Positions 2,968 to 24,593 of a DNA stretch of 64,000 nt are shown here, piece by piece; position 1 is the stretch's first letter, and the number at the start of each line of letters is the position of its first letter. The stretch covers positions 156,170 to 220,169 of the forward strand of contig CP060228.1 in NCBI GenBank assembly GCA_023898565.1, written 5' to 3'. The notes under the pieces were generated by a model, which saw only the letters and a program-made list of their open reading frames with translations, was not told where the DNA came from and did no database searches. This DNA comes from Candidatus Nomurabacteria bacterium (GTDB lineage Bacteria > Patescibacteriota > Minisyncoccia > Phycocordibacterales > UBA918). Position numbers and translations under genes: made by a program.

Positions 2968-3008
2968 ACTGTATAGTCAAAACAGACAACCGAGCAAAGG
3001 AGCTCAAC

Positions 3009-3164: not shown

Positions 3165-3180
3165 GCGGTTTTTCTATTTC
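3131..3180 (-). terminator. Bidirectional rho-independent terminator at the 3' end of the transketolase operon
   Basis: The stem aaaaccgctca / tgagcggtttt (3147-3157 / 3163-3173) has loop aggaa. On the minus-strand RNA it is followed by uuuuuugcuugccgguuuuuu, and on the plus strand by tttttctatttc. Confidence 0.55.
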
Positions 3181-3187
3181 AATATAT

Positions 3188-4195: not shown

Positions 4196-5102
4196 TAGTA
4201 TCTGCTAAAGTGCGGAGTTTTTTGAGCGCAACTTCCGCCTGCTCGCTGCGATCTACTCGATCTTCTGGCCCCTTCCCTGGAGGATTACCATGCCAGCGGA
4301 AGTCGCGCTCAAAGACATCAACTCCCTTAGAGGCAATTGTGTGTGCAATAATCACGGATGGCTGACTGTATACCGACTGTGCCTTTCCAATCGCGTCATT
4401 AACTGAGCGAATGTTGTGCCCATCCACTTCCTGCACATCAAAGCCAAATGAGGCGAGTTTTTCTGCAAGTGGCTCAAGCGGCATCACGTCCTTGGTGTAG
4501 CCATCAATCTGAATACCGTTACGGTCGATAATGACGATAAGATTATGGAGCTTCTCTTTGCCGGCGTGCATGAGTGCTTCCCATACCTGCCCTTCATTCA
4601 GCTCACCATCACCAGTCAGACAGTAGAAAAACTTTGATGAATACGGATTGTCAATACGCTCGGCAATTGCCATACCAACCGCCTGCGACAGACCAGAACC
4701 TAGCGGACCAGAGCTTGTTTCAATCCCAGGCAACGTACCGCGATGCGGATGTCCCTGGAGACGTGACCCGAGCTTACGTAGCGTTAGCAGCTCCTCAACC
4801 GGAAAGTATCCAGCATGCGCAAGCGTGGCGTACAACACCGGACAGATGTGGCCATTAGAAAGAATCACACGATCACGCTCTTCCCAATCGGGATTTTCTG
4901 GATCGTGCCGCAAAATCCCAAAATACAACAGCGTAAAAATATCTGCCATGCCCAAAGGACCAGCGGTGTGACCACTCCCCGCTTCCACTAACATCTCAAT
5001 AATACTTTGACGAATACTATTCGCCTTGCGCTCCAGCGCTGTTACTTCGTCTGACGTAAGGTACTGCATATGTACCACCAGTATAGCAAAAGCTCTCACC
5101 AA
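4176..5102 (-). CDS. Transketolase, N-terminal subunit (TPP-binding)
   Basis: The segments GSGHTAGPLGMADIF, RDRVILSNGH, GHPH, GPLGSGLSQAVGMA and LTGDGELNEGQVWEA are TPP-binding transketolase N-domain motifs. A split tkt is typical of archaea and CPR. Confidence 0.85.
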   Translation of the reverse strand: MVRAFAILVVHMQYLTSDEVTALERKANSIRQSIIEMLVEAGSGHTAGPLGMADIFTLLYFGILRHDPENPDWEERDRVILSNGHICPVLYATLAHAGYFPVEELLTLRKLGSRLQGHPHRGTLPGIETSSGPLGSGLSQAVGMAIAERIDNPYSSKFFYCLTGDGELNEGQVWEALMHAGKEKLHNLIVIIDRNGIQIDGYTKDVMPLEPLAEKLASFGFDVQEVDGHNIRSVNDAIGKAQSVYSQPSVIIAHTIASKGVDVFERDFRWHGNPPGKGPEDRVDRSEQAEVALKKLRTLADTIEPQDS

Positions 5103-5114
5103 TGACGGTGAGAG

Positions 5115-5771
5115 CTAGTTAATAAGTGCTACGAGCGCTGCGTGCGCCGCCTTGGGGTCTGGTTGTTTTACAATCGCCGAGCCGCACACGAAGCGATCCA
5201 CACCGGCCTCTTTAAGGCGCACGATGGTGTCTTTATTAACACTGCCATCAACCGAAATCATCATATCAGGAAACGCTTTTCGGAGCTCGCGCACCTTATC
5301 TAGCGTTGGTTCGTAAAATGGTAGCCCTTGTGCACCAATTTCATAGATACCCATCAGCTGAATGTAGTCAGCATGCTTCGCGTACTCAATAAGCTTTTCA
5401 AGCGGTGTGTCACCATGTGCACTTACTCCAAGTGACACATCAGTTTGTTCTGAAAAGGCTATAAAAGCCTCCAATGATACTGTCTCTACATGGAAGACGA
5501 GCATGTCAGCCCCCGCCTTAATCCACTCACGTGCAGCCGGCAGTGGCTCCTCTACCATCAAATCAACTTCAAGCGTATAGACATCAAGTAAGTGCTTTAC
5601 TGACACAGGGTCACCAATTGGTTGGTACGGCCAGCATACAGAAGAGACGAATTTTCCATCTACCAAGTCGAGCTGCAGCTCACGCGAAAACGCTAAATCT
5701 TTTGCATATGAGAGCACCGCTTCTTTGCTTTCAGGGATTATGGCTGGTACAACCTGGCTATACTTCATCAT
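5115..5771 (-). CDS. rpe: Ribulose-phosphate 3-epimerase family protein
   Basis: It is 218 aa with a TIM-barrel RPE-like pattern (LDLVDGKFV, DLMVEEP, VFHVET, ISVDGSV), and it sits between rpiB and tkt. Confidence 0.6.
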   Translation of the reverse strand: MMKYSQVVPAIIPESKEAVLSYAKDLAFSRELQLDLVDGKFVSSVCWPYQPIGDPVSVKHLLDVYTLEVDLMVEEPLPAAREWIKAGADMLVFHVETVSLEAFIAFSEQTDVSLGVSAHGDTPLEKLIEYAKHADYIQLMGIYEIGAQGLPFYEPTLDKVRELRKAFPDMMISVDGSVNKDTIVRLKEAGVDRFVCGSAIVKQPDPKAAHAALVALIN

Positions 5772-5776
5772 ACTCT

Positions 5777-6238
5777 TTAACGAATCTTCTTAGAGATATC
5801 TTCAATCTTAAAATTGCGGCGTTCATATTTTTCAGCGGTGAGCGCTGGTTCATGGAGCCATGTCCAAATCACTTCTTTAGCGAGATTTATATCTACAAAG
5901 CGCGCACCGATCGAGAGTATGTTCGCATCATTGTGTTGCCTAGAAAGCGGCACAATAGACTTGTCTCCTCCATAAAATACAGCCGCTCGCACGTGCGGAA
6001 ACCGATTTGCCATCATAGCCTCACCTTGCCCTGAACCACCAAAAATAATACCGCGGCTCGACTCTGCAGCAGCACTCACCGCCGCCGCAGCCTTTGAAAT
6101 GAAATCTGGAAAATCGTCATCAGAAACAAAATCCTTCGCACCATGATCTACCACCTCAAACCCCTCTTGCTCTAGCCATGCCAAAACCGCATCTTTATGT
6201 TCAAGTCCGGCATGATCTGTAGCAAGATGAATCACCAT
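5777..6238 (-). CDS. rpiB: Ribose-5-phosphate isomerase B (RpiB/LacAB family)
   Basis: MVIHLATDHAGLEHKDAVLAWLEQEGFEVVDHG ... GIIFGGSGQGEAMMANRFPHVRAAV is a classic RpiB sequence of 153 aa. Confidence 0.85.
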   Translation of the reverse strand: MVIHLATDHAGLEHKDAVLAWLEQEGFEVVDHGAKDFVSDDDFPDFISKAAAAVSAAAESSRGIIFGGSGQGEAMMANRFPHVRAAVFYGGDKSIVPLSRQHNDANILSIGARFVDINLAKEVIWTWLHEPALTAEKYERRNFKIEDISKKIR

Positions 6239-6244
6239 AGTAAA

Positions 6245-7270
6245 TTACGAAATGTACTTGGAGGCCTCTGCCACATGTTCGACAAGCGTTTGTGTGTAGC
6301 TGGTTTCGTTGTCATACCACGCCAGCACTTTCACCAGGTTACCACCAACCACGCGTGTGAATGACAGATCAGCAATTGAACCGACACGCGCACCAATAAT
6401 GTCAGTTGATACTATCGGCTCATCGGTTGCTGCTAAAATATTCTTCCAACGTGGATCAGCAGCCGCTTTACGTAATGCTTCATTAATTTCTTCGACGGTC
6501 GTTTCGCGCTTCGCGATAAAGGTAAGGTCTACAATTGAGCCAACCGGTACCGGAACACGCATAGCGATTCCATCGAACTTCCCTTCAAGTTCAATGTGCG
6601 CCTTTGTTGTAGCAACAGCCGCACCCGTTGTAGCCGGAATAATATTGAGAGCGGCAGCTCGTCCAGAACGCAAATCTTTCTTGGCCGGACCGTCCACTAA
6701 TGACTGGGTTGCCGTGTATGCGTGCACAGTGTTAAGAATTGCTTTCTCGATACCAATTGTTTCCTTGAGGACGGCCACTACCGGACTGGTCGCATTAGTG
6801 GTACATGATGCATTTGAAGAAATATCACAAGTAGCCAACTGGTCATGATTGACCCCCATCAAGACGGTTGCGCCGCGCACGCCAGATTCTGCTGGTTCAT
6901 CTTTAGCTGGTGCAGAAATGACCACACGCTTAGCTCCAGCATCCATGTGTTGCTTCGCACCACCAAACTTAGTGAAGAAGCCAGTTGATTCAACCACAAC
7001 ATCAATATTTAAATCTTTCCACGGTAGCTTAGCAGGCTCTCGTTCACTTAAGAACTTTACTTCCTTTCCACCCACCTTAAGACCACCTTCCATCACTTCC
7101 ACCTCAAACGGAGCACGGCCGTAGACTGAGTCATATTTAAGCAGATACGCCAAATTATCGAGACTACCGAGATCATTGACCGCGACAATCTCAAAATCTG
7201 AACGCCCAAAGGCAGACCGCATAAAGTTGCGACCAATTCGACCAAAACCGTTGATTGCTACACGTACCAT
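6245..7270 (-). CDS. gap: Glyceraldehyde-3-phosphate dehydrogenase
   Basis: MVRVAINGFGRIGRNFMR is the NAD-binding N-terminus, and the active site SNASCTTN is present. The protein is 341 aa. Confidence 0.9.
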   Translation of the reverse strand: MVRVAINGFGRIGRNFMRSAFGRSDFEIVAVNDLGSLDNLAYLLKYDSVYGRAPFEVEVMEGGLKVGGKEVKFLSEREPAKLPWKDLNIDVVVESTGFFTKFGGAKQHMDAGAKRVVISAPAKDEPAESGVRGATVLMGVNHDQLATCDISSNASCTTNATSPVVAVLKETIGIEKAILNTVHAYTATQSLVDGPAKKDLRSGRAAALNIIPATTGAAVATTKAHIELEGKFDGIAMRVPVPVGSIVDLTFIAKRETTVEEINEALRKAAADPRWKNILAATDEPIVSTDIIGARVGSIADLSFTRVVGGNLVKVLAWYDNETSYTQTLVEHVAEASKYIS

Positions 7271-7332
7271 ATATAAGAAATAAACAAATTAATTAACTCC
7301 TGTAACTATACAAGCAATCAGACAACTCGACA

Positions 7333-8961
7333 TCACGCGTTATCCTCAGTTCGTCGTTTATGCAGAAGGAATAGAATAAGCAGTACAAGTAACACTCCCA
7401 GCACAAGCGCAACTGATGGCCACCATGCAAAAAGTAAGTCTGGGAAAATCACCGGTGTTTTTGTTTCATCAATCGTTTCGATAAAGATTACTGGTGTTTG
7501 GTACGTACCAACTACAAATGCTTCATAATCGTAAATCTCTAAAATGAGCAGTGATTGACCCACTACAAACAAGGCCGGGATTTGTGCTTCATAGGCAGTT
7601 CGATCTCGATTGATGCGAAGCAGGAAAGAATACGTTTTTTCAGGATCGACTGGATTTTGAATCGTGGCAATAAGCGACTTCAAATTACCCGCGACCGCAG
7701 TCCGCGGCACAGACACGGTAAAGGCAGTAGCGGCATCAAGCTGAATTGGCGCGTCGGTAAACAAATACGTAAGATTCCCCTGAGCAACCAACACTTCAGA
7801 CAACAGAGGCATTTTCATTTCAACCGTGAACCGCTTAGTATCAATCGAAGACGTGGCATCATTCGTGTCCGGCACAGGCACTCCGATTATCGGCCCTTGA
7901 CCTGGTCCAGTCTGTTCAAAACCTGCGCCAGGAAATACAGTAGCCGCATATACAACAGCCACCGCTCCCGACGAAATATTGCCAAACTGATCATACACAA
8001 AAGCGGTGTAGTACACAGGCGAGTACTGATTAAGCACGCGCTCATCGGTGGCAGATTCTTTTATTCCTTGGTACACAATCGCACCATCCTGTGGATGTTC
8101 TGGGAACCCCAAATGACTGCGCACAATCCGAACGTGCGCAAGATCGGGCTGGCTAGGCAATTTCCATGAGAGCAGCACATTGGTGTCTACTGCAATCGCA
8201 CTAAATTGTTCAACGTTTGAAACCGCATATTGTCCTTCGTCTTTTACCGTAGTAAATGAACCTTGCTTGATTACAGTCGCAACTCCAAATGGAGTGTACC
8301 CAACAATTTCATACTCGTACTCGGTGCCTGGCTCAAGATCAGTCAAAAGCACCGTATGATCCATTGCAAATACACTACTCACCACATACCCAAGCTCATA
8401 CGATCCTGTTCTTCCCCATCGCACCTCGAGACGAGCCTGATGCGCAGTTGTCACAAGCAAACTAGTAGTAGACATACCGACATCAATCGCGATTGCTTCA
8501 GCTATTACACGCGCTGCGGTTCCACTCTGACCACTTACTGGTTCTGTAGTGGTGGCCACCGGCGGCACCACGGGTGGATTTGGTGTGGTAGTTGCTAGAG
8601 CATTTGAAGTAGACGAGTAATTAAATGATGGATCAAATGCTCGAACTACGTAGCTGTAGGTGGTGCTTGCAACCAAACCAGAGTCGGAATATGACAGTAG
8701 TGTAGTGGTCGCAATTGGGACGCCGTCACGCAAGACCGAATAACCTGACAACATGGTGTCGTCTGTTGCTGCAGACCAGGTAATATCAATTTGTGTCGAC
8801 GCAACCGGAATGACAGAAAGCAACGTTGGTGTAGTCGGCGGGTTAGCATCCACTCCACCGAACACACGCACTACAAAGGTTTCATCAGATTGAGCTGATG
8901 CAAAACTCGCGGCGGCAACAAAAAAGCAAACAATCAGTGCGCGTGTGATTAAATACTTCAT
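7333..8961 (-). CDS. Cell-surface protein with fibronectin type III-like domains and a C-terminal membrane anchor
   Basis: The start was set at MKYLITRALIVCFFVAAASFASAQ, a signal peptide (ATG whose complement is cat at 8959-8961). Fn3-like segments include TPTLLSVIPVASTQIDITWSAATDDTMLSGYSVLRDGVPIATT. The C-terminal hydrophobic helix WWPSVALVLGVLLVLLILFLL is followed by HKRRTEDNA. It is the last gene of the surface operon. Confidence 0.6.
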   Translation of the reverse strand: MKYLITRALIVCFFVAAASFASAQSDETFVVRVFGGVDANPPTTPTLLSVIPVASTQIDITWSAATDDTMLSGYSVLRDGVPIATTTLLSYSDSGLVASTTYSYVVRAFDPSFNYSSTSNALATTTPNPPVVPPVATTTEPVSGQSGTAARVIAEAIAIDVGMSTTSLLVTTAHQARLEVRWGRTGSYELGYVVSSVFAMDHTVLLTDLEPGTEYEYEIVGYTPFGVATVIKQGSFTTVKDEGQYAVSNVEQFSAIAVDTNVLLSWKLPSQPDLAHVRIVRSHLGFPEHPQDGAIVYQGIKESATDERVLNQYSPVYYTAFVYDQFGNISSGAVAVVYAATVFPGAGFEQTGPGQGPIIGVPVPDTNDATSSIDTKRFTVEMKMPLLSEVLVAQGNLTYLFTDAPIQLDAATAFTVSVPRTAVAGNLKSLIATIQNPVDPEKTYSFLLRINRDRTAYEAQIPALFVVGQSLLILEIYDYEAFVVGTYQTPVIFIETIDETKTPVIFPDLLFAWWPSVALVLGVLLVLLILFLLHKRRTEDNA

Positions 8962-8968
8962 CAACCCA

Positions 8969-9733
8969 TTATAACGGCAAAGCCGTGATTGTAGTGGTTG
9001 CGATATACACGCCATCTAATACCCCTGCCCCACTTCCGACACCCACTCGAAAGCGCACGGAAGTTGTCGCTCCACTTGGGTGGTTCGCTCCTGCGCCCTC
9101 CGCGATTACTTGAGCAGTCGTTGACACACCAGCCCAACACGCAAAAGCAGTATCTAGCGAGCCGGTGTTACAAATACCGCCGCCGTCTTTGAAAAACTGA
9201 GTTATATCAATCCCTTCGGGAGTGTATCCAAAGTACGCCTCGCCTGCCCCAACAGTGAAGGAGTAGTCTGGCTCAGCTCCCTCATTGTAATCGGCAATAC
9301 TATAGGGAGGGTTTTGCATAGCAGGATCGTTTTGTCCCTTGATTGTAAGCTGATAACCAGACGGACTATCAGTCACAACGGTAAACGTTGAGGATCCATT
9401 TGCTTCACCTCCGGTAATACCCGGAATTGACTGATCCATAATTACATTACCCGTGGTAGTCAAACCAATAAAGACCTCTTGCATTTGCTGATAGCCCGCT
9501 TTTAACATGTATGACGCGCTGCTCGATTCTCCTGTTGCAACTTCGCCAACGGTACTTTCACTGATGTATGAAGTAGACGTAGACAAACCACCACCCACAT
9601 TAAGACTATCACTCTGCAATTGATAGCTTGCGCTCGAGCGCACCTGGGCCAAACTCACATTCAGCAACAACAAGACAATCATTGTTGTTGCCCCCGCTTC
9701 AAATATGCTACGCAAAAGAACAGTTTTTTTCAT
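8969..9733 (-). CDS. Small secreted Ser/Thr/Gly-rich protein, paralog A of the surface cassette
   Basis: The signal peptide is MKKTVLLRSIFEAGATTMIVLLLLNVSLAQV. It shares a conserved framework with the 10826..11530 product: T.F.V.T....GY..TI..., then C..G......A..CW...STTA, then a C-terminal Y.ATTT. There is no confident family assignment. Confidence 0.5.
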   Translation of the reverse strand: MKKTVLLRSIFEAGATTMIVLLLLNVSLAQVRSSASYQLQSDSLNVGGGLSTSTSYISESTVGEVATGESSSASYMLKAGYQQMQEVFIGLTTTGNVIMDQSIPGITGGEANGSSTFTVVTDSPSGYQLTIKGQNDPAMQNPPYSIADYNEGAEPDYSFTVGAGEAYFGYTPEGIDITQFFKDGGGICNTGSLDTAFACWAGVSTTAQVIAEGAGANHPSGATTSVRFRVGVGSGAGVLDGVYIATTTITALPL

Positions 9734-9735
9734 GC

Positions 9736-10806
9736 TTACGCATCTTTTCGTTTAAATTCAAACGTACGGAAAAATGCTCTCACACTGAAAATTATAATAA
9801 ATAAAGTCAAAAACACGCCCCCGACAATCTTCCAAGGAAGCACCCAGAAGCTAACTGCCACCTCATCAACAATATCATTGTACCCACGATTAACCCGAGC
9901 AGTAACCGTATAACGTCCGAGTAAAAACTCTCGATTCCACTCAATTTCACGCACACGTAGCGATTTTGGCAATACAAACCAAGGTTCCAGCTCAACAAAT
10001 CCGACCTCTTCTCCAAACATGTTAGTGATTGAAATCTCACCGTATGGATTAAGGTGAACGGTACCAGTGTTTTCATATAAAATACCCATGTTAACCGGTC
10101 CCGACTCATACCACATCTTGTCATCAATCAAATCAATTGATTTAGTCTGTCCAGATTCATCGACCTCTCCTTTTACGCGAATGAAGAACAACGAACCAAC
10201 ACGAGCAATAATCGGAGAACGTGGCACCACTCCCTCGCCCTCTGCAGGGGCGGTCTGCACCGTAGATACCAATACGCTACCATAATACCCGCCTGGGCTG
10301 GTATTTGGTGGAACACTAATAGTGATCGGGATTCGTGCTCGTTCACCCAAATTAAGTCTCACCGTGTCTTCTGGGAATGAGATAAAATCACGCACACTAT
10401 ATGGCCCCTTTTTATCGCCAAGCAGCGTAACCGCTGAGCTTCCGTCAGCCGAACCCTCAACGTCCTCAATTTCTAGCAAATATTCTTTATCGTTAGCCAC
10501 ACGGTTGGCAACCGTGATTTCACGCACGACCGTTTGGCCCGGACTAAGTTCGATTTCTGTTCGACCAGGCCCAACCACAAAATCACCCACTTCGACATTA
10601 CCAAAAATACGTTCCACTTTATACCAATCAGTCACAGCTACTGTTTGTGTTGTAGTTGACGCGATAGCCTCGGTAGAGCTGGCAGCAGCCAGTTCATCTG
10701 CTACATCTGTACCGCCAATAGACTGCGCAAACACCTCTCCAAAGCAGAGAGGTGTGAGCATGAGAGTAAAAATAAACGCAACGAGAATCTGTGTTCTGGT
10801 AGTCAT
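9736..10806 (-). CDS. Signal-peptide plus C-terminal TM-anchored surface protein (central gene of the cassette)
   Basis: The start was moved to MTTRTQILVAFIFTLMLTPLCFGEVFAQS (ATG whose complement is cat at 10804-10806). The beta-rich ectodomain contains IELSPGQTVVREITVAN, an Ig or chaperone-like pattern. The C-terminal TM helix WKIVGGVFLTLFIIIFSV is followed by RAFFRTFEFKRKDA. The overall architecture resembles DUF916/DUF3324-type anchored proteins, but this is weak. Confidence 0.5.
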   Translation of the reverse strand: MTTRTQILVAFIFTLMLTPLCFGEVFAQSIGGTDVADELAAASSTEAIASTTTQTVAVTDWYKVERIFGNVEVGDFVVGPGRTEIELSPGQTVVREITVANRVANDKEYLLEIEDVEGSADGSSAVTLLGDKKGPYSVRDFISFPEDTVRLNLGERARIPITISVPPNTSPGGYYGSVLVSTVQTAPAEGEGVVPRSPIIARVGSLFFIRVKGEVDESGQTKSIDLIDDKMWYESGPVNMGILYENTGTVHLNPYGEISITNMFGEEVGFVELEPWFVLPKSLRVREIEWNREFLLGRYTVTARVNRGYNDIVDEVAVSFWVLPWKIVGGVFLTLFIIIFSVRAFFRTFEFKRKDA

Positions 10807-10825
10807 AGAGTGACTACAGAATAGC

Positions 10826-11530
10826 TTACTTAGCAATAACCGACAAGGTCACTGTTGCAGTATACCATTCTGCCTGTGGCACCGGAGTGGCACCACTCGG
10901 TACAGTGAGATTAAAGGTTACTGTTGAGGTGGCACCGGTCACCGCAGCAGCTGACGTGTCCATGATACGGAACGCTGTGGTACTCGGCGCCATCCAACAG
11001 CTTACTGCGCCGTTTTGTGAACCACCCAAGTTACAAGCGGCGCCGTTATTCAAGAATGACTGATCAAGATCTGAAGTAGAAGAAGCGGTCACGGTGTACG
11101 CAAATTGAGCTGAAGTACTAGCTACATAGCCGTAGGTTGGCTGTCCAATGGTGTATCCCTGGTAATCATGAATCGCATCACTAAGTGAGGTGTCTCCCTG
11201 CATTGCTTCCGCTGATCCATTATCAAAGAAATCGATCGTTACGTAATAGCCTGCCGTGTTGTTGGTTTGTACCACAAACTGTGTGGTACCGGTTGCTTGA
11301 CCACCAGTCACACCGTTCAGTGTACCAGCCATGGTTACGTTTGCTGGCGGCACCAAGAATGAGGTTTCGTCAGTGATCTGGGCTCGAACAGTAATATCTA
11401 CACTTTCGTCGCCGTGACTGATTGCCGGTTCGATTAGGAAATACGTCGCAAAAAGCGTCGCTACCATAGTGACACTAGCCCAGAAAGCAAATATTCCAGA
11501 CTGAGCAAAATGTTTAAGATTGTAATTCAT
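10826..11530 (-). CDS. Small secreted protein, paralog B of the surface cassette
   Basis: It has an N-terminal hydrophobic segment and shares the C...CW and STTA motifs and the C-terminal Y.AT.T ending with paralog A (AVSCWMAPSTTAFR versus AFACWAGVSTTAQV). Confidence 0.5.
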   Translation of the reverse strand: MNYNLKHFAQSGIFAFWASVTMVATLFATYFLIEPAISHGDESVDITVRAQITDETSFLVPPANVTMAGTLNGVTGGQATGTTQFVVQTNNTAGYYVTIDFFDNGSAEAMQGDTSLSDAIHDYQGYTIGQPTYGYVASTSAQFAYTVTASSTSDLDQSFLNNGAACNLGGSQNGAVSCWMAPSTTAFRIMDTSAAAVTGATSTVTFNLTVPSGATPVPQAEWYTATVTLSVIAK

Positions 11531-11632: not shown

Positions 11633-14600
11633 TTAAATAGCCCCGCCGCCGCCGGCCCCGCCGCCGCCAACGTAGTGATACACCCGCACCTGAATCGCAT
11701 CAACCTGTACTGTATTGCTGGATGGATTACCCACAATGCGTACCGCAAAGTTAGCATTACTGAGCTGACCAGCACTCCAGCCATGGCCCCAGGTATCACT
11801 CGCACCGCCGAGTGTAATGACTTTATCAGCGGTCGTGAGTGTTGGTGTTGTCTTGGCACTAGTCCACGTGGTACCGCCGTCCCACGAGAGCTGAACACCA
11901 ATGTCGCCGGCGGCGGTAGTACCAGACACTTCGAGCTTCACTTCAATACCGGTCACCACACTACTGCCGCCAAGCGCATAGCCGTACGCTGAGTATGAAG
12001 AAGAGGCATTAGTGGTGTTGGTTGTCGCATAGGTGCCGTCGGTCTGGTCATAGGCATTGGCACCGGTAGTGAAGTCACCAGCATGAGCAGTTGGCCACTT
12101 GTAATTTGGATCATCCCCAATCTGTTCCCCTGCCTCTTCGGTGCCGCCAGTCTCGACCGAACGACCTTCTGGTGCCGAATCGCCGACAGCTGCACTACTG
12201 CCGCCTCCGCCGCTTTGATTGTTGCGATTGTGCTGCACTGAGTCGACAGTACCGTACACATCCTGTACTCCCACTTCATCCGCCACTGCCAGATCATCCG
12301 CATACAGCGCAAGCATCATAGCAGCGCCATTTTCCGGCGCATTCCAGTCTGCAATTACAAGGTAGTTCGTGGTAGTAGTAGAGAGGAAGTCAGTTGTGAA
12401 AACAATCGTGCCAGTCTTGTCATCAAGTGTGAAAACACCTGTACCACCAACCTGCTCATCGCCTCCGTCGTAGAGAGCGTCATTATTGTGGTCACGGAAT
12501 AAGCGAATATTTGAGAAGTCACTCGCATCAATCTTCTTCGCACCGCTGACGGTAATAGTGAGGTCGGTCACCGTAGCAGAACCACTCTCCGGGATAAGCT
12601 TGAAAGCAAAGAGTGCTTCATCAGTTTTGTTTTGGAAGTTAAAGGCATTATTCACTTGCGTGTCGTCATGATTTGTAATCGTGGTGGAACCAACAACGAG
12701 AGATGACGTGCTGAACGTCCAGTTGACATTGTTTCCGTAATCGACCGAATCAAGAGCAGCAACAGTCGACGAAGCGCCGCTGTCTTCTACATTTACATAT
12801 CGAACATTCAGCTGACTACCTGGAATATCGAGGTACCACTGCGTACCCTGCTCACTTGAGCGAAGCCACACAGGAGAAGAAGCACCGCCTTGCCAGTCTA
12901 CGCTCTCAAATGTACTCGTAGCGCCTGCCACAAACTGAGCAGATGTACTTGCAGTCATGGTAAACGTACCGGTTGTTTCTACCGGCATACCGAAAATGAC
13001 TGATTGGGTAGTTGTACCATCCTGCGACGTGTTTGAAATGGTGAGATCATAGAATGCACTGTCACCAGACAATGTACCCGTGGCGGTTTGTTGCGTAACA
13101 CCCGAGAAAATCACCTCTGAAGTAGAAGCTGCTAAGATGCCGTTGTTGGTATAATCTCCACCCACAGAAAGTGTCGCGTCAGTCAGGTTTAAGTAACCGT
13201 CGTTGGTCAGAGAATCTGAGACAGTTACTGTAGACGTACTAATTACAGTCGCATAACTGGTACTTGCGTTAGTCAGAGAATCAAGGCTTAATGCATCGTA
13301 GATTGTTAGCGATGGAGTCACGCTTCGCATCACATTATCATCACTCCAACCAACCGCCACAAAATAACTATCGCCATACACAACCGATTCCCAGCTGCCA
13401 AGACCCTCGCGAACAGTCCACGTAATACCATCTGGTGAGGTTATGACGCGATCTGCGCCTGCTCCAACTGCTACAAAGAGACCGTTGCCGTAAGCCACCG
13501 AGTTCCATGAGCCTGTTGTTGAACGCACCGTCCAATTGACACCGTCGGGTGAGGTCATGACGCGGTCGCCAGAGTACCCCACCGCTACAAAGAGACCGTT
13601 GCCGTAGGTGACTGATAGCCAGCTGTCGTTATTTCCGGCGGCTGAACGCACCGTCCAATTGACACCGTCGGGTGAGGTCATGACGCGGTCGCCGGAGCTG
13701 CCTACCGCCACGAAGAGACCGTTACCGTAGGTGACTGATTGCCAGCTGTCGTTATCCCCGGCGGCGGAGCGGACGGTCCAAGTGATGCCGTCGGGTGAGG
13801 TCATGACGACGTCGTCTGCGCCATTACTAGCCCAACCCACCGCCACGAAGAGGCCGTTGCCGTAGGTAACATCATACCAGTCATCATTATCCCCCGCAGC
13901 ACTGCGCGCGGTCCATGCCCCACCTCCACTACTCGGCGCCACCACCACATCTCCGAGTGCGTTAGCTCCCACCAAGTCACCCATCACGAGCGGATCTGGT
14001 CCAGTGAAGTAGGTTGTGCCACCGTTGTTATCAAAGGTGCCATTCTGGCTAAAGTCACCACCGATAGTCAGAAGACTTGGCGCGACCAGAGAGCCAGAGA
14101 TGGTGAGGTTTGAGGTAGACGCATTGTTTGAGGCAGTGTATGAACCCTCAATAGAGATGTCGCCTAAAGCTGAAGAGCCGGTGAGGGTGCCAGAGAGCGT
14201 TTTGCTGGTGCCGGTGAATTTTGCTAAACCACCATTATTATCAAACACTCCGCCGTCGTTATGGAATGAACCAGAGAAGGTAGATGACGCAGCATTTACG
14301 AAAGTGCTACTACTCCAAATATATAACTCCTTACCGTCTTCAACGGTAAGAGTGTCACCCGTAGTAGAGGCGGTGTATCCAATATCAGCATGTTGGCTTG
14401 CATCATACGTATCCAAATCAGCCAACGTAGTACTTGTTGCTCCCTCCTGACGTACAATTATCCGATTATTGTAGATATCAACGCCAGTTAGATTCTCAGT
14501 TGACGAGGCAAATTTTGACACAACAGTTCCTTCGTCAAAACCAGAATTCCAAATCCAGATAACAAATGGCGTGTCGACACCAACACCATTACTATTATCA

Positions 14601-14845
14601 ACTGTGAAACTAAAATTCCCGCTATTGTCTGATGAAGTCGCCTGCACGCTGACAGTCGAAGTACCAATTGCTAAAAACAAAGATTCTGCAAATGAAGCAG
14701 CTGTCGCACCTTCATCATCATAAATTGTACCTGAAATCGTAAATGTACCTGCCTCAGCCAGCATCGGCGCAAACACAATCACAGCACAACCAGCGACAAC
14801 CGCGGCTTTAACGTACTCAATGATGTTTTTAATGGCTACTGTCAT
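11633..14845 (-). CDS. Large secreted surface protein (1070 aa) with an Asp-box/BNR-like beta-propeller built of tandem repeats
   Basis: It has an N-terminal signal-like segment. At least six tandem units of about 41 aa have the form W.SVTYGNGLFVAVG....VMTSPDG(I/V)(T/N)WTVRSAAG.ND. S-x-D-G-x-T-W is an Asp-box-like motif. There are Gly/Asn/Thr-rich beta regions and a Gly-rich C-terminus ending GGGGAGGGGAI. Confidence 0.65.
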   Translation of the reverse strand: MTVAIKNIIEYVKAAVVAGCAVIVFAPMLAEAGTFTISGTIYDDEGATAASFAESLFLAIGTSTVSVQATSSDNSGNFSFTVDNSNGVGVDTPFVIWIWNSGFDEGTVVSKFASSTENLTGVDIYNNRIIVRQEGATSTTLADLDTYDASQHADIGYTASTTGDTLTVEDGKELYIWSSSTFVNAASSTFSGSFHNDGGVFDNNGGLAKFTGTSKTLSGTLTGSSALGDISIEGSYTASNNASTSNLTISGSLVAPSLLTIGGDFSQNGTFDNNGGTTYFTGPDPLVMGDLVGANALGDVVVAPSSGGGAWTARSAAGDNDDWYDVTYGNGLFVAVGWASNGADDVVMTSPDGITWTVRSAAGDNDSWQSVTYGNGLFVAVGSSGDRVMTSPDGVNWTVRSAAGNNDSWLSVTYGNGLFVAVGYSGDRVMTSPDGVNWTVRSTTGSWNSVAYGNGLFVAVGAGADRVITSPDGITWTVREGLGSWESVVYGDSYFVAVGWSDDNVMRSVTPSLTIYDALSLDSLTNASTSYATVISTSTVTVSDSLTNDGYLNLTDATLSVGGDYTNNGILAASTSEVIFSGVTQQTATGTLSGDSAFYDLTISNTSQDGTTTQSVIFGMPVETTGTFTMTASTSAQFVAGATSTFESVDWQGGASSPVWLRSSEQGTQWYLDIPGSQLNVRYVNVEDSGASSTVAALDSVDYGNNVNWTFSTSSLVVGSTTITNHDDTQVNNAFNFQNKTDEALFAFKLIPESGSATVTDLTITVSGAKKIDASDFSNIRLFRDHNNDALYDGGDEQVGGTGVFTLDDKTGTIVFTTDFLSTTTTNYLVIADWNAPENGAAMMLALYADDLAVADEVGVQDVYGTVDSVQHNRNNQSGGGGSSAAVGDSAPEGRSVETGGTEEAGEQIGDDPNYKWPTAHAGDFTTGANAYDQTDGTYATTNTTNASSSYSAYGYALGGSSVVTGIEVKLEVSGTTAAGDIGVQLSWDGGTTWTSAKTTPTLTTADKVITLGGASDTWGHGWSAGQLSNANFAVRIVGNPSSNTVQVDAIQVRVYHYVGGGGAGGGGAI
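13431..13925. repeat. Near-identical 123-bp tandem repeats (about 4 copies plus diverged flanks) inside the 1070-aa gene
   Basis: Units begin at 13554, 13677 and 13800, each with gtcatgacgcggtcgcc...ccgtcgggtgag, and match at nearly every base. A shorter 114-bp unit begins at 13440. They encode the propeller blades. Confidence 0.7.
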
Positions 14846-14859
14846 ACAATTTTTCTTTA

Positions 14860-17800
14860 CTACACAGCATCTTCGCTATGTGGAGACTCTGCTTCTACTT
14901 CCTCAGTTGCCGAAACGGGGTCGGCTTCCGTTGTATCTGCAGCCGGCGGCTCCGGTACTTCCAGCGACTCATCTTCCGTTATGACTATATTTTCTTCATT
15001 CTCTGCCACGACTTCGTCCCCAAGCCCTTCACCTGCTTCTGTCACAGGCACACCTTGCTCAGCTTCTGTTTCAGATGAAGAAGTAGCCGTCTCCACTGGC
15101 GCCGGCGGCTCTTCCGTGGTGGTGGCTACCTCGTCGGTGGAAGTGGCGGAGTTCGGAGGGAGCACCTCAGTTGGTGGCTCCGATACAGCACCTTCTTCAG
15201 AGGATTCGCTACCCTCTCCTGTCACTGGTGAGTTATTTGAACTCACTGGCGCGCTAGAATTTGTGTTCAGCATAGTACGCAAGTCATCAGCGGTGACACA
15301 CACTCCGTCGACACAGAGCTCACTAGTCTCAACCTTGTCTGCCTTAAGTGTAAAGACTGAAAGAACGCCGTCTACGAAGTTGTTGGCAAGTGTCACTAGG
15401 CGATCGAAGATTGTTTCGTCTTCATTATCACCAACCGTCTCAATCGATGAGGTGCTAAAGAGTGTGCCGAGCGACGCAAGCTGTGAATCATCAAACCAGC
15501 GGTAGCTTCGATCAACAAACATTACCACGCGACCGACCTTCACTGCCGTACCGTCCGCCAATCGCTTTGTTTCACTTCGCTCATCACGCAGCGCGTCCAT
15601 TTGCTCAGCCACACTCTCTGCTTCAGCGATGTGGTTTGCTTCATCAATCTGACCTTGTGTAGTGGTGGCCGAGAGCGGCACACACGGTTCATCGCCTACC
15701 GCATTACCACCACCGTAATAACAACCATCATCAAGTCGCGGATCAAGATTGGTATAAATTGGCTCATACACTGGCTCCACCATGTCGTCACCAAATTGAT
15801 TGAGATATGTTTCACTGTACTTGCGTGCATCATCAAAGTCCTCTAGAGCAATACCAATAGTTGCTCCCGTGCCAGTTGCCTTCATGGCTACGCCCGGCAG
15901 AGATGAAAGCATAAGTGAATCACCACGCTTAATTGGACCGTTTTCGGTTGAAAGCTTCACTGGCACACGTCCAGATAGCGCCAGTGGGTACCCACGCTCT
16001 CCGGCACGAAGTGAGGAATCGTCAAAACCAAGAAGCAGACCCGGCTTGGTAGAAACCACACCAAGAACCGGCATGTCACTTCCCTGTTCTGCACGATCAA
16101 TTGAAAGCTCACCATCAAGCACCACCACTTCGCCTGGCTCGAGATTGGTGCTGCTGAAATACATTTCTGCGAGGTCAGAATTTCCAGTCAGACTTTCTAC
16201 TGAAGTGATGCGCCCTGACGTAGAAGCAGTACACGAACCATCATTATCGACACAAATACCACCAAAACCAATCTGAAGTCCTGCAAGATGGTTGGTGGTA
16301 CCATCACCGATGGTAGTCGTGCCGTAGGCTGATACTGTAAAGACCGATGCGCCGCCGTTTTGGAAGTCGAGGTACTTAGATGTGGACGAAGAGAATGACC
16401 CCGTGCCATTACCAAAATTCATCTCAAGGCCGGTACCGGCGAAGGTTGAGCTTGACTGGAACAGTGAAAGCAAGCTGGCAGTAGTAAGCGTATCAGTATA
16501 CGCACGAATTGCATTACCTTGAGCAGTACCTTCGGTCTCAAAGAAACCAGCTGCTGGCTCGTAGGTATCGCCTGCTTCACCAGTCGTGACTGCTCGCACA
16601 CCAAAAGTGCGGGCGAAGGCTGAAATCGCCGTATTTTCACCGTACGTATTCGCACCGCGATTGGCTTGTACTTCAAGCGTACGCACCGTATTACCATATG
16701 TAGTATCGTCCCGCAGGCGAATCATACTCCCCACAATGGTGGTAGTGGCAGTGTTATTAGCATCGAGGAAAAATCGATTACCATACTGCACTGCTGAAAG
16801 AACACTGTTTTGTGTTTCGAGGTACTGATCAAGTCCAACCACTCCTGCTCCAGAAAACGCAGTATTTTGAATTGCCAATTTTGCCGCTGGTGAAGTGGTG
16901 CCAATACCAACCCTACCTGCGTTTGTAATATGAAAGAGCGCATCACCGGTTGATGACGCAACCGTAAGGAGCGGCTTGGTAGCATCGGTTGCGTCACCAA
17001 GCACGCTGAAGCGTGCCCAAGGCGAGGTAGTACCAATACCCACAGCAAGATCGGTCACACTACCCGCTCCATCAGATTCACCATACAGAGTAAGTAGTGA
17101 GTTACCATCAATAGCAGCAGTATAACTTTCGACAGTACCAACCGAAGCGCCAGCAGTGACGCCCATGTCAGTCCACGTCACCACTCCAGCATCATCCTCA
17201 AACTTCATGTTGCCCAACGCCAGGTTCTCAATAGTGGTCTGGTTGGTTGCTGCGTTATACGAAATTGCACCATTATTAACATCAAAGCCACCAGAGATAA
17301 GTGTATTTGCATACGAACCTGAGGTATCAATCCGGAAGATTGGCGACACTGAACTTGAAGTAGCGATAGTCCACGCAAAACTATCACCATTCACTACCGT
17401 ACTGGTGGCAGCAGTGAAGTAATGAAGAAGGAGTGAAGATGCACTTGAAGACGCGAAGTTAATCACGTTTGAGTCGAGCCAGGTGTTGCCGGCGACAGAA
17501 AGTTTTGCCGCTGGACTTGACGTACCCAGGCCGAGATTGCCACTGTTGGTCATGGTTAAGACACGACCGGAAGCATTGTCGAGTGTGAGAATATCTCCTG
17601 CACCTAGCTGTGTGATAGCAGCGGACGTTGCAGTAGTTGAACCAATGATGCTGAAGAGATTGTACCCGCGAGCGCTATCTGTCGTGATCGTAGTCCTATC
17701 CCATTCGTTGTAGCGAGTACTCGCACTCGCATCCGCGATGTAGTTTGTGCTGTTTGGATTTTCGAAATGATTTGAAGCAAGAGTCGTATCAACAGCACCG

Positions 17801-20800
17801 CTGGCAATTTCTATCAACGCATACGTCGACGTCGAATAAATACTATTTGCAACGATTGCGATGTTTGTGGTTTCTGCAATATCGATTGCAGGATGTGCAC
17901 CAGACAAACCTATTGAGTACAATTGGTTATTAGAAATGACATTGTTGGCAGCATTGCCGCCGTACCTACTATATGCAGCAATTGCGGCATGTCCAACATT
18001 CTCAATTTTGTTGTTAGAAATAGTGTTATCTGAAGCACCCCAACCTAGAAAGATACCGTTTGCACCAACAAAGCTGCCGAAGATGTTTCTGATAACATTA
18101 TTGCTAACAATATTATGTGAAGGAGCATAGCTATACGGAGCGTCAAAATAAATACCTGCACTAAGATTTGATAGCTGGTTACTCGAAATAACGTTGTACA
18201 TAGACTCCTCAGTTAGAGTAACACCCTTGCCAGTATTGGAGATAACGTTATTAGCAACATTAGAGTAAGTTATATTCTCGAAGTAAAGAGCACTGTCAGC
18301 ACTCGCCCACATTGTATTGTTCTGAATTGACAACCGACTCGAATTATATGCAGCTATGCCGTCCCAATTTTCACTAATGTTGTTACTAGCAACCTCCACA
18401 TCAGACGAACCGTCAATATCAATGCCTGCGATATTGTTATTCTTGATTCTTATGCGACTGGAAAGAAAAACGTTTATTCCATATATATGTTTATTATTTA
18501 TCACAAGAACATCAGTCGAATTGTTAACATCAGCACCATAGTTATCAACATTAACTACCTCAAGCTCAGATATGGTTGAGCTACTTGAATCACTGAGGTA
18601 CACCGCAGTTTGTGAACTAGATTGGTTTGCCTGATTACCATCAATTTTGAGACTAGAAATTGCCACTCGAGGAGTGCTGCTTGCTCTCAAAATAACCACA
18701 TCACCCAAATCGTTATTGTCCTTCAATTTAATCACAGTAGAAACTCCTTGCCCGATAAGCTGAGTGTTGGTCGCCATATTTATTGCGATACCTGGTGCGG
18801 TGGATGTAGAAACTTCAAAGTTACCAGCCAAGAGATACACCGTACCACCACCGCCATTGGCATACACATAATCAATCGCCTGCTGAATCTCAACTTCGTC
18901 ACTCGTACCATCAGCCACGTAGTCAGCATATGCCTTTTCTGCTGCTGGAGAGTCTGAGGCTGCCACCACCACGGAAGTGTCGCCTGCGGTATTGAGACAG
19001 TTTCCATCGGCAGTCTGGAAACATCCACCAGAGAGAGCGATACCATTGGTGAAAGTTGAGGTAGCTGTCGTAGATGCCACAATCGCTGTATTAAACGTAC
19101 TCGTCGCACTCGTAAATGCTCCAATCACATTCGCACCCACGGTGCTGCCAGTACCGAGCTTGAAAGTGTCGTCTGAATCATCAAGACCAAAGTAATAATC
19201 GAGTGCGTTACCATCAAACAAAGTAAAGGTGTCTTCAGCTAAGCCAGAGCCAAGCGTGTAGCCGCTCCCTGTTCCACCAGTAGAGGCGAGTGAAAGGATA
19301 CCAGAACTATCAACGCTCAGCTCTGCATAATTTGAACCATCATATGAAAGCCGGAGGCTGTTGCCTGCTCCGAAAATATCGAGCATCGCGCCAGGTGAAG
19401 CAGTACCCAAACCAAGATTGGTACCGTCGTACACAAAGGTGGAATCAAACGCGAGCGCTGAACCTGAGACATACGGAATCGCATTACTGGTATAAGACCC
19501 CGGCGTATCAGACAACCCTAAGAAAGTGCCATTACCAAGGCCGAGCGATGAGGTGGCAATGTCTGCCCAGGCGGTACCATTCCAGTAAAAAAGGTCACCG
19601 TAATTTTTGGTCATGGCCGCCACGTCAGACAATTCTTCAATAGAGTTGTCAGTCAAATTATCAGCCGTACGCGCTGTCTGTTGTGTTTCCCAAAAATTTG
19701 CTGAAGTTGTTGAGAAGCTATTAGCTATGTAATAACTACCCTCTTGACCATCGAATGTGCCCACCCAATCACCGCTCGTGTCGGACAAAAAGCCTAGACT
19801 AGAAGTTGCGACCCACTCCACACCCGCACCCGTAGTCTGAAGCACCTGACCAGTAGTACCTCGAGTAGCATTATTGTCATACACACCTCCCGTAAGAGCT
19901 ATATCGCCAGCTACTGATAGCTTGGCGTACGGTGAGGTGGTACCGATGCCGACGTTGCCAGTTGGAGTAATAACCGCTGCTGTACCAGAACCAAAAACAG
20001 AACTGTTGACATTAAATTCAATACCTTTTCCAGAACCTCCATGTATAGCAGTATTTGCAGTACTACCGTTATACCCAAACGCAGCACGATCATTAGTGAT
20101 ACCTATATAGTTTACATCCGTAATAGCACCGTAACGGTTGACATAGATATGCGAGCTAGTACTCGTTGTTTGTATACTACCTGACACGTCAAGCCTAGCA
20201 GTTGGTGTTGATGTCCCAATACCAACGTTGCCGCCCGAGGTGATGGTAAGCCGTGAAGTGTTATTGGTAATGAGTCGTAAATCATGATTTGAGAAGGTGC
20301 CTAGGAAGCCTTGGAAGTCCTCACTGCGTACATCAACTTTTACCTCATTGGTCGTATCAGTGAAGCGAGCGCCAGCATTTGTCGCGCCTGCAACATTTAA
20401 TAAGCGATCCATAGTAGTCGTGCCAATTCCTACTCTACCAGCAGCCGTCACTGTAAATAAATCATTCGAATTATAGTCCAGCAACGACAAAACATCGCCT
20501 GGTGCAATACTTCTAGTTTGCTGGATTGTTAATACTGGAGTGCCGTCAAAAGTATTAGCAATCATTTGATCAGCCTCATCGGAACGTAAGAAAGACGACG
20601 AGGCAACACCACCAAGCTTCATCGATTCGAAAGCGGCGGGCACTGCACCAAGTGGCTTGCGAGGTGACATCTCGCCGTCCCAGGCAGGCGCTCCAGTGCC
20701 GCCAATCTCCACACCCAAATAGAGCGTCTGACCGAAGTCGACACTAGTAAGCGGTGAAGTGGAGCCAAGCATTACGCTAAAAAGACCATTAGTGACTTGC

Positions 20801-21054
20801 ACTTGATCAGCGCCAGTGAGTGATTCGGTCCATACTGCCGACGTAGTAGCCTGACTGGTGCTCTGCAACAACCAAAAACGCATGTTGTACGAACCATCAG
20901 GCACTGCCACTCCTGAACTGTCGGTAAGCTTACCTTGGTAATTAATTTGCTGATTTGGCTCAGCAGATACAAAACTTACCGCAACAAACAAAGCAAACAT
21001 GGCAAGACTCATTGCCCTGGTCACTTTCTTGATTGTCGAATAAGCTAAAAACAT
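14860..21054 (-). CDS. Giant secreted surface protein (2064 aa): repeated GIGTTSP.AKL motif region, parallel beta-helix (pectin-lyase fold) repeats, and an acidic disordered C-terminal tail
   Basis: It has a signal peptide (MSLAMFALFVAVSFVSAEP). A motif is repeated at least seven times: GRVGIGTTTMDRLLNV, GNVGIGTSTPTARLDV, GNVGIGTTSPYAKLSV, LGLGTASPGAMLDI, LGLGTSSPAAKLSV, GIGTTSPWARFSV and GRVGIGTTSPAAKLAI. A long run of NNxI(S/A)xN beta-helix rungs follows (NNNIAGIDIDGSSDVEVASNNISEN...NNVISNTGKGV...SNNKIENVGH...). The C-terminal roughly 200 aa are rich in Pro, Glu, Thr and Ser. Confidence 0.65.
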   Translation of the reverse strand: MFLAYSTIKKVTRAMSLAMFALFVAVSFVSAEPNQQINYQGKLTDSSGVAVPDGSYNMRFWLLQSTSQATTSAVWTESLTGADQVQVTNGLFSVMLGSTSPLTSVDFGQTLYLGVEIGGTGAPAWDGEMSPRKPLGAVPAAFESMKLGGVASSSFLRSDEADQMIANTFDGTPVLTIQQTRSIAPGDVLSLLDYNSNDLFTVTAAGRVGIGTTTMDRLLNVAGATNAGARFTDTTNEVKVDVRSEDFQGFLGTFSNHDLRLITNNTSRLTITSGGNVGIGTSTPTARLDVSGSIQTTSTSSHIYVNRYGAITDVNYIGITNDRAAFGYNGSTANTAIHGGSGKGIEFNVNSSVFGSGTAAVITPTGNVGIGTTSPYAKLSVAGDIALTGGVYDNNATRGTTGQVLQTTGAGVEWVATSSLGFLSDTSGDWVGTFDGQEGSYYIANSFSTTSANFWETQQTARTADNLTDNSIEELSDVAAMTKNYGDLFYWNGTAWADIATSSLGLGNGTFLGLSDTPGSYTSNAIPYVSGSALAFDSTFVYDGTNLGLGTASPGAMLDIFGAGNSLRLSYDGSNYAELSVDSSGILSLASTGGTGSGYTLGSGLAEDTFTLFDGNALDYYFGLDDSDDTFKLGTGSTVGANVIGAFTSATSTFNTAIVASTTATSTFTNGIALSGGCFQTADGNCLNTAGDTSVVVAASDSPAAEKAYADYVADGTSDEVEIQQAIDYVYANGGGGTVYLLAGNFEVSTSTAPGIAINMATNTQLIGQGVSTVIKLKDNNDLGDVVILRASSTPRVAISSLKIDGNQANQSSSQTAVYLSDSSSSTISELEVVNVDNYGADVNNSTDVLVINNKHIYGINVFLSSRIRIKNNNIAGIDIDGSSDVEVASNNISENWDGIAAYNSSRLSIQNNTMWASADSALYFENITYSNVANNVISNTGKGVTLTEESMYNVISSNQLSNLSAGIYFDAPYSYAPSHNIVSNNVIRNIFGSFVGANGIFLGWGASDNTISNNKIENVGHAAIAAYSRYGGNAANNVISNNQLYSIGLSGAHPAIDIAETTNIAIVANSIYSTSTYALIEIASGAVDTTLASNHFENPNSTNYIADASASTRYNEWDRTTITTDSARGYNLFSIIGSTTATSAAITQLGAGDILTLDNASGRVLTMTNSGNLGLGTSSPAAKLSVAGNTWLDSNVINFASSSASSLLLHYFTAATSTVVNGDSFAWTIATSSSVSPIFRIDTSGSYANTLISGGFDVNNGAISYNAATNQTTIENLALGNMKFEDDAGVVTWTDMGVTAGASVGTVESYTAAIDGNSLLTLYGESDGAGSVTDLAVGIGTTSPWARFSVLGDATDATKPLLTVASSTGDALFHITNAGRVGIGTTSPAAKLAIQNTAFSGAGVVGLDQYLETQNSVLSAVQYGNRFFLDANNTATTTIVGSMIRLRDDTTYGNTVRTLEVQANRGANTYGENTAISAFARTFGVRAVTTGEAGDTYEPAAGFFETEGTAQGNAIRAYTDTLTTASLLSLFQSSSTFAGTGLEMNFGNGTGSFSSSTSKYLDFQNGGASVFTVSAYGTTTIGDGTTNHLAGLQIGFGGICVDNDGSCTASTSGRITSVESLTGNSDLAEMYFSSTNLEPGEVVVLDGELSIDRAEQGSDMPVLGVVSTKPGLLLGFDDSSLRAGERGYPLALSGRVPVKLSTENGPIKRGDSLMLSSLPGVAMKATGTGATIGIALEDFDDARKYSETYLNQFGDDMVEPVYEPIYTNLDPRLDDGCYYGGGNAVGDEPCVPLSATTTQGQIDEANHIAEAESVAEQMDALRDERSETKRLADGTAVKVGRVVMFVDRSYRWFDDSQLASLGTLFSTSSIETVGDNEDETIFDRLVTLANNFVDGVLSVFTLKADKVETSELCVDGVCVTADDLRTMLNTNSSAPVSSNNSPVTGEGSESSEEGAVSEPPTEVLPPNSATSTDEVATTTEEPPAPVETATSSSETEAEQGVPVTEAGEGLGDEVVAENEENIVITEDESLEVPEPPAADTTEADPVSATEEVEAESPHSEDAV

Positions 21055-24455: not shown

Positions 24456-24593
24456 GGGTTTCAACAGATATTTAGCTACTAAGTCTGTGCTCCACATTGT
24501 ACGGACAGACTCTTCAACTGACAAGCTGGCGCGCAGACTCACCAACAAACAGCTGCGTTTTGCAAACAGTGTGTTTTGAGTAGAATTCAAACG

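Follow-up and report, generated by a model that had tools for sequence, protein, structure and literature searches.

A mostly diverged Asp-box-like propeller array, probably reshaped by recombination, in a putative surface-protein gene of Candidatus Nomurabacteria

The window analyzed here, a stretch of 64,000 nucleotides (nt) from the Candidatus Nomurabacteria contig CP060228.1, to which all positions below refer, contains a minus-strand gene for a protein of 1070 amino acids (aa) in which a tandem array of beta-propeller blades is embedded (Table 1). The protein is 100% identical to the hypothetical protein H6780_00805, which is encoded on a 951,832-bp contig of a Candidatus Nomurabacteria metagenome-assembled genome (MAG). 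The hydrophobic signal-like N-terminus, with the core AAVVAGCAVIVFAPML followed by AEA-G, a putative cleavage site as judged from the sequence, and the beta-helix and beta-sandwich domains, which are adhesin-like, suggest that the protein is probably secreted and exposed on the cell surface. In the full-length AlphaFold2 (AF2) model (predicted local distance difference test, pLDDT, of 68.6), the first beta-helix segment lies directly N-terminal to the propeller, and in the C-terminal module, which follows the array, a second beta-helix segment precedes two beta-sandwich domains with a disordered Gly/Ser linker between them.

The tandem array is real and far beyond chance: Tandem Repeats Finder (TRF) reports a period of 123 nt with 2.3-2.8 copies, 82-89% matches and a score of up to 452, and the codon alignment resolves five consecutive in-frame units of 114-135 nt, the lengths of which are all multiples of 3 (U1 to U5 from the N-terminus; consensus WT.RS(A)AG.ND.W..VTYGNGLFVAVG..GDRVMTSPDG..). 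The original prediction, made from the sequence of the window, placed near-identical 123-bp repeats at 13431-13925; a tandem array is indeed found there by TRF and by a 51-nt exact repeat, but it comprises five units and extends from 13307 to 13915. Only U2 and U3 are close to each other, with 87.8% nt and 92.7% aa identity in the blade register (15 nt differences; 3 of the 41 codons differ non-synonymously) and 91% nt identity in the best register (13520-13642 against 13643-13765). Every other pair of units shows 46-74% nt identity, from 74% for U1 and U2 in a gapped alignment and 66-70% for U4, which carries a 3-codon deletion, against U2 and U3, down to 46-47% for the terminal U5, which is without the SPDG motif, against U1-U4. 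The ten pairwise aa identities range from 47% to 93%, with a median of 70.8%. Thus, a match at almost all nucleotides, as predicted, is loosely true of the single pair starting at 13554 and 13677 (85.4%; 18 differences in 123 nt) and fails for the rest; in particular, the unit at 13800 matches the one at 13677 at 30% without gaps, being out of register through a 12-nt indel, and at 74% when aligned. The similarity does extend beyond the protein level, as predicted, given that it reaches the synonymous sites of U2 and U3, although 11 of the 41 codons of this pair differ synonymously. The only long exact repeat in the array is the 51-nt one, at a lag of 123; the next longest are 23, 21 and 21 nt, and every exact repeat recurs at a lag divisible by 3. 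With a single exact repeat above 23 nt, the array is a poor substrate for the slippage or recombination that had been envisaged. A crossover between the two 51-nt copies would add or remove exactly one 41-codon blade, in frame.

The closest relative of the window is a sister strain (contig L001, GCA_020428845.1; strain K hereafter), the blades of which are denoted K1-K7 and compared to W1-W5, that is, U1-U5. According to Nei-Gojobori estimates of non-synonymous and synonymous divergence (dN and dS), U2 and U3 differ with dN 0.045 and dS 0.49 (dN/dS ~0.09), and the other unit pairs in the array have dS of 0.8-1.0. For comparison, the 557 conserved C-terminal codons yield dS 0.069 and dN 0.009 between the window and strain K, so that the silent-site divergence of the closest blade pair is about 7 times that of the two strains, and the very recent duplication that had been proposed does not hold. 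Blades 2 and 3 are under strong purifying selection, and the positional blades of the two strains show dN/dS of ~0.19. The array is already fairly old, and blades 2 and 3 alone are still close.

Footprints of gene conversion, which the original prediction had also invoked, or of unequal crossover are present. Within the 51-nt patch, synonymous differences are found in 0 of 16 comparable codons, compared to 11 of 26 in the rest of U2 and U3 (Fisher p=0.003). The patch straddles the unit boundary and, accordingly, U3 opens like U4 (15 nt) and goes on like U2 or like K3 of the sister strain, a trace to be expected from a short gene-conversion tract or a recent crossover. The K3 blade is itself a hybrid, with the first informative sites as in U2 and the last eight as in U3 (aaaaababbbbbbbb; max-chi2 permutation p=0.0025), and is identical to U3 across its last 69 nt, exactly as an unequal crossover of U2 with U3 would create. 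Furthermore, blades cluster by lineage. In the arrays of two positional orthologs, namely a complete 4-blade array (L032, positions 3001-5784, encoding P0018) with blades that are 85-91% nt identical and an array in which the adjacent blades 3 and 4 are 98% nt identical (L033, positions 3001-7515, encoding P0005), the nearest neighbor of every blade lies inside its own array. Such lineage-wise homogenization is the pattern of concerted evolution or independent amplification described by Pereira and Lupas (2022; PMC9218822), who found that amplification of propellers goes on continuously in every lineage, the Asp-box one among them, and that blade numbers are continuous around the family median. 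The arrays of L033 and L032 are far more homogeneous than that of the window and appear to be better candidates for ongoing copy-number change.

Comparison with strain K reveals a sharp division within the gene. The L001 contig is syntenic with the window and, over 5,669 bp on the downstream side of the gene, 99.6% identical to it (23 mismatches, no gaps). The 3' part of the gene is 98-100% identical between the two strains, with zero mismatches in the 3' 576 nt. The switch to a divergent 5' part occurs in the last blade, where 17 mismatches in 123 nt are followed by 1 in the next ~300 nt. The other blades of the array show 60-92% nt identity to those of strain K, and upstream (5') of the array the strains are unalignable as DNA and 38% identical as protein, a value that comes from a blastp comparison of the 5' peptide of strain K with aa 224-300, within the first beta-helix segment. 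Strain K has 7 blades compared to 5 in the window: W5 pairs with K7 (88% nt identity) and W2 and W3 with K2 and K3 (81-91%), and W1 and W4 are without a close partner. The expectation that blade number may vary between strains is thus borne out across flanks that are 99.6% identical, and comparing repeat counts across strains, as had been suggested, does give different numbers; however, the difference appears to be a replacement by a divergent allele over the array and the whole 5' half, rather than a simple gain or loss of units or a stepwise change; its breakpoint would lie in the last blade, with smaller patches in addition. Across the non-repetitive 3' half, the mismatches to strain K form clusters at 12209-12320, 12638-12776 (23 in 139 nt) and 12923-12932, with identical sequence in between, which suggests several small imported or converted tracts. 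A gene fusion was also considered as the source of the 5' segment of strain K and rejected: in the window, this segment was found only at its positional counterpart (38% aa identity) and has no match to the neighboring gene for a 2064-aa protein. A six-frame scan of the 64-kb window with a hidden Markov model (HMM) of the blades detected no blade-coding sequence outside the array, so a paralogous donor of the divergent patches is not located within these 64 kb.

Several lines of evidence support the identification of the units as Asp-box-like, Ycf48-related propeller blades, in agreement with the original prediction. The blade HMM finds five domains in the array (independent E-values from 4e-19 to 8e-27). 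Scans of the 1070-aa protein against Pfam and NCBIfam yielded no significant family, the only weak match being to EPTP (E=0.032), and no match to Pfam BNR or PSII_BNR. A profile built from an alignment in which 32 homologs are represented by five-blade stretches matches one solved family, Ycf48, a 7-bladed Asp-box propeller involved in photosystem II assembly (E=7.8e-4). The AF2 model obtained with the same alignment is all-beta, with four strands per unit (pLDDT 84.8; predicted template modelling score 0.85), and Ycf48 is its top Foldseek match (E=7e-10), ahead of 6-bladed Kelch, YWTD and designed propellers. Blades 1-4 carry T-S-P-D-G-[IV]-[TN]-W where the Asp-box sits, in the hairpin that links strands 3 and 4, and blade 5 is without this motif; according to the HMM alignment to Ycf48, the motif has one residue fewer than the canonical S-x-D-x-G-x-T-W, with the Asp shifted by one. 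With Ycf48/HCF136 (PDB 2xbg, 5ojr, 8am5_S) the array has in common the four-stranded blades of ~40 aa each and, in blades 1-4, an Asp-box-like Ser-Asp-Gly-Trp hairpin motif between strands 3 and 4. In contrast, sequence identity is 16-18%, there are five blades here rather than seven, the motif has the form S-P-D-G-x-[TN]-W, and the context is a giant, putatively secreted protein of a non-photosynthetic bacterium.

The blades belong to a very large family. More than 4800 proteins among the candidates scored contain homologs at E<=1e-3, in Bacteroidota, Patescibacteria and other groups. In the 120 best of these matches, to which an HMM derived from 12 blades was applied, the blades are overwhelmingly grouped as 7, 14 or 21. 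Within a narrower patescibacterial family, which is defined by the C-terminal module and a Gly-rich tail, the blade region is a variable insert: there are 0 blades in P0011, 4 in the complete protein P0018, 5 in the 1070-aa protein, 7 in P0002, P0005, P0022, P0026, P0040, P0108 and L013, 7+7 in P0014, and 24-27 in giant members. P0002, P0008, P0018 and P0005 are positional orthologs by synteny, their genes being followed by the same genes for proteins of ~234, 356, 254 and 540 aa. The blade counts in positional orthologs are 0, 4 or 7. Blade number varies over evolutionary time. A scan of genome and metagenome contigs with the C-terminal module identified 29 family loci, none further above 61% identity, so that the comparison at the strain level relies on L001 alone.

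We favor the reading, to which we assign a probability of roughly 0.7, that this is an older and mostly diverged array of Asp-box-like blades that evolves by inter-blade recombination inside a replaceable 5' allele. The array is a five-blade propeller module inserted between the beta-helix stalk segments of a probable patescibacterial surface protein, with blades from a repeat family in which they usually come in sevens. In repeated cycles, blades would be amplified, recombine with each other by unequal crossover or gene conversion and diverge while purifying selection acts on them, and blades 2 and 3 would be held together by one short conversion tract. At the level of the population, the array and all sequence 5' of it would behave as a replaceable allele, such that recombination with a breakpoint in the last blade would have produced different N-terminal halves and blade numbers (5 and 7) in two strains that are 99.6% identical. 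The data show the anatomy of the repeats, the propeller fold, the extent of divergence, the mosaics and the numbers of blades in relatives; we infer recombination as the mechanism, as well as surface exposure and a ligand- or host-binding role of the propeller.

Some observations weigh against this reading. The only close relative, L001, is a short metagenome contig of 8.5 kb that ends 264 nt upstream of the first blade, and a chimeric join in it is possible. Five blades are unusual for a family built on sevens. The AF2 model of the array can be superposed on 7-bladed propellers along ~210 residues (2.4-2.9 Å), and there is no 5-bladed ring among its top 60 matches. This suggests that the five blades might form a 5/7 arc that stays open and does not close into a ring, and the module may be incomplete or dependent on a partner; the prediction depends on which PDB propellers superpose best, and the alignment, coming from 7-bladed relatives, might bias it. 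The first strand of U1, WTARS, would serve as the 'velcro' strand of a closed ring and is of low confidence in the full-length model, as are the predicted closing strands generally (low pLDDT). The five blades may also oligomerize, since fragments of WD40 propellers with 4 and 5 blades fold as oligomers (PMC6805158).

A more far-reaching proposal, possible although on balance unlikely, is that the N-terminal half (beta-sandwich, first beta-helix and propeller) is a recognition cassette that is hypervariable at the strain level, with recombination landing on the conserved blades. Blade number (4, 5 or 7) would then be selected and would alter the binding geometry or the oligomeric state, for example, through completion of the propeller in trans, and with it the host or partner specificity of an episymbiotic bacterium of the candidate phyla radiation.

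Among the competing explanations, it is quite unlikely that the strain difference is unreal and reflects an assembly artefact, be it a collapse of 7 blades to 5 or a chimeric contig of the sister strain joined via shared blades. The family norm of 7 blades fits this possibility; the L001 contig ends beside the array, and that of another relative, L002, breaks inside its array; a collapse of repeats would also yield a hybrid unit such as K3; and the assembly problem is acknowledged for repetitive propellers (PMC9218822). Nevertheless, the same five blades are found on the 951-kb contig of the MAG and on a contig assembled independently with MEGAHIT (ENA ERZ27248697, k141_170610), which encodes an identical 1070-aa protein and differs from the window by 2 single-nucleotide polymorphisms in 23,213 bp, both outside the gene, so that two independent assemblies of essentially one population contain the same array. 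With units that are at most 91% identical and share no exact repeat longer than 51 nt, a collapse of those present appears unlikely at k=141, barring extra unseen identical copies. As for chimerism, the array of strain K differs from that of the window throughout, and divergent patches are also present in the non-repetitive 3' half (12638-12776), which would be hard to obtain by a single chimeric join and argues for real recombination.

We consider it improbable that the array is a true contingency locus, as originally predicted, in which slipped-strand mispairing or RecA-mediated crossover between units would alter the blade number at high frequency in one population, with selection of the resulting surface variants. 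The multiples of 3 in all units and exact-repeat lags are compatible with this notion, as is the 51-nt exact repeat, which is longer than the minimal length for recombination (the minimal efficient processing segment is about 20-30 bp in E. coli); near-identical strains do differ in blade number, and the hybrid K3 fits unequal crossover. However, the hypermutable perfect or near-perfect repeat tract that characterizes such loci is lacking: one pair of units is 88-91% identical, the rest are 46-74% identical, a single pair exceeds 75%, and a single exact repeat exceeds 23 nt. The dS of the closest units is 0.49, ~7 times the strain divergence, and the difference between 5 and 7 blades is accompanied by non-homologous 5' sequence and blades that are 60-92% identical, that is, by allele replacement and not by a clean change in the number of units. 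The array is also the same in the two assemblies (2 differences in 23 kb), although the agreement of two consensus assemblies is weak evidence for its stability. Classical contingency loci, such as those of Neisseria, Haemophilus and Campylobacter, are perfect repeats of 1-8 nt with reversible switching of frame or promoter at ~1e-2 to 1e-5 per division; the present array resembles them only in the general idea of a surface-protein gene with a repeat whose copy number could change, and differs in the imperfect 123-nt units and the in-frame changes, and in that no variation is seen within the population.

Least plausible, and very unlikely, is that the array is an inert, non-closing deletion derivative of a 7-bladed propeller that drifts toward loss, with a zero-blade member as the end state: five blades in a family based on sevens, the absence of blades in the ortholog-like P0011, the 7-fold curvature without closure in the AF2 model with low-confidence velcro and last strands, and the interpretation of sub-median blade numbers as fragments (PMC9218822) would all fit, but purifying selection continues both between U2 and U3 and between the positional blades of the two strains, the open reading frame (ORF) is intact with every unit in frame, the specialized terminal blade is kept between strains (W5 and K7), and propeller fragments of 4 or 5 blades can fold, as noted above.

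The favored reading, an old array reshaped by recombination, makes the locus one more case of an evolving repeat protein of a familiar kind, with no new mechanism. Size-variable surface proteins, such as alpha C/Rib of group B streptococci, Esp, Bap, SasG/Aap and yeast FLO1, have repeats that are near-identical in DNA over hundreds of bases and that build open stalks or beads-on-a-string structures, in which any copy number is accommodated. The 1070-aa protein is similar to them in that it is a putatively secreted protein with multiple-of-three units and strain-variable unit number, but most of its units are diverged rather than long and nearly identical and, unlike in those proteins, its fold is toroidal, such that closure constrains blade number. 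A closer counterpart is provided by the highly repetitive propellers, defined by at least 2 consecutive blades with a median pairwise identity above 60% (Pereira and Lupas, 2022; PMC9218822), among which the array falls with its median of 70.8% aa. The likeness to these propellers, including those of earlier work on WRAP/PkwA from the Lupas laboratory (PMC6805158), consists in similarity at the nucleotide level and homogenization within lineages, as well as in blade numbers that are continuous around a median of 7 in a catalogue that includes the Asp-box supercluster (PMC9218822). The differences are that the array lies at the diverged end of the spectrum, with one close pair and the others at 46-74% nt identity, that it is inserted in the beta-helix stalk of a surface protein of Patescibacteria, and that its repeat type is without a significant Pfam or NCBIfam model. 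Repeat homogenization, unequal crossover and variable blade numbers have already been described for repetitive propellers; a literature search on tandem-repeat propellers at the surface of Patescibacteria returned nothing specific. The array adds an Asp-box example from an uncultured phylum to the evidence that amplification and reshuffling of propellers continue. If the strain-level replacement is real, the gene would be among the few loci that separate otherwise near-identical strains of Patescibacteria and therefore a candidate for the recognition of hosts or surfaces in a group in which attachment is poorly understood.

Table 1. Features of the 1070-aa protein gene and of its blade array. 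Positions are those of the window; residues are those of the protein.
Feature	Window positions	Strand	Residues (aa)	Basis
Gene for the 1070-aa, probably secreted multi-domain protein	11633-14845	minus		ORF list, translation, full-length AF2 domain map
N-terminal signal/anchor segment	14750-14845	minus	1-32	sequence; AF2 helix 5-19, then low-confidence stretch
Signal-like helix, N-terminal			5-19	full-length AF2 model
Beta-sandwich			34-133	full-length AF2 model
First beta-helix-like stalk segment	13940-14359	minus	163-302	full-length AF2 model, short-strand solenoid pattern
Five blade-coding units in tandem	13307-13915	minus	311-513	TRF, codon alignment, blade HMM, AF2
Propeller (low-confidence linkers 304-314 and 503-532 at its sides)			322-500	full-length AF2 model
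U1, 45 codons	13781-13915	minus	311-355	codon alignment
U2, 41 codons	13658-13780	minus	356-396	codon alignment
U3, 41 codons	13535-13657	minus	397-437	codon alignment
U4, 38 codons	13421-13534	minus	438-475	codon alignment
U5, 38 codons, terminal blade	13307-13420	minus	476-513	codon alignment
51-nt exact repeat, copy one, end of U3 into start of U4	13520-13570			exact-repeat search
51-nt exact repeat, copy two, end of U2 into start of U3	13643-13693			exact-repeat search
Switch zone, divergent 5' part to near-identical 3' part	13291-13413			mismatch distribution vs strain K
Conserved C-terminal module	11636-13306	minus	514-1070	alignment, AF2, dS/dN vs strain K
Second beta-helix segment			535-690	full-length AF2 model
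Beta-sandwich			720-873	full-length AF2 model
Disordered Gly/Ser stretch			876-956	full-length AF2 model
C-terminal beta-sandwich			960-1059	full-length AF2 model
Gly-rich C-terminal tail GGGGAGGGGAI	11636-11668	minus	1060-1070	translation, family comparison, full-length AF2 model

Downstream of the propeller gene, a conserved operon (7333-11530, minus strand) shows the same gene order in L001, L002, L032, L033 and L035. Its products are ~234 aa, ~356-366 aa (with a C-terminal transmembrane segment and a basic tail), ~254 aa and ~540-560 aa (with fn3 and a C-terminal transmembrane segment) long, and all of them have N-terminal signal or transmembrane segments and, except for the fn3 match, no Pfam family; the 234-aa and 254-aa proteins look paralogous. 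The layout of this operon recalls that of the WxL-type surface-protein loci of Firmicutes. On the other side, the adjacent gene (14860-21054, minus strand) encodes the 2064-aa protein, which contains NosD/parallel beta-helix repeats and an acidic low-complexity C-terminus, and the N-terminus of which gives a sub-threshold match to NF053851, 'mosaic adhesive trimer family chimeric fiber protein' (E=6.6e-6; 26 bits, the cut-off being 60). The cluster of surface-protein genes is flanked by housekeeping genes (GatB, Obg, SecA and GAPDH, at 23046-28615 and 6245-7270) and thus lies on the chromosome, with no obvious mobile element carrying it.

Finally, the stretch that encodes the Gly-rich tail includes a CCG run detected by TRF at 11640-11668. 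A tail of the form GGG(x)GGGG[ADEPR]I-COOH ends every member of the patescibacterial family (P0002, P0008, P0011, P0018, P0039, P0062 and L003-L031) and is followed by no hydrophobic helix; from its sequence, it looks like a previously unrecognized C-terminal sorting or attachment signal.

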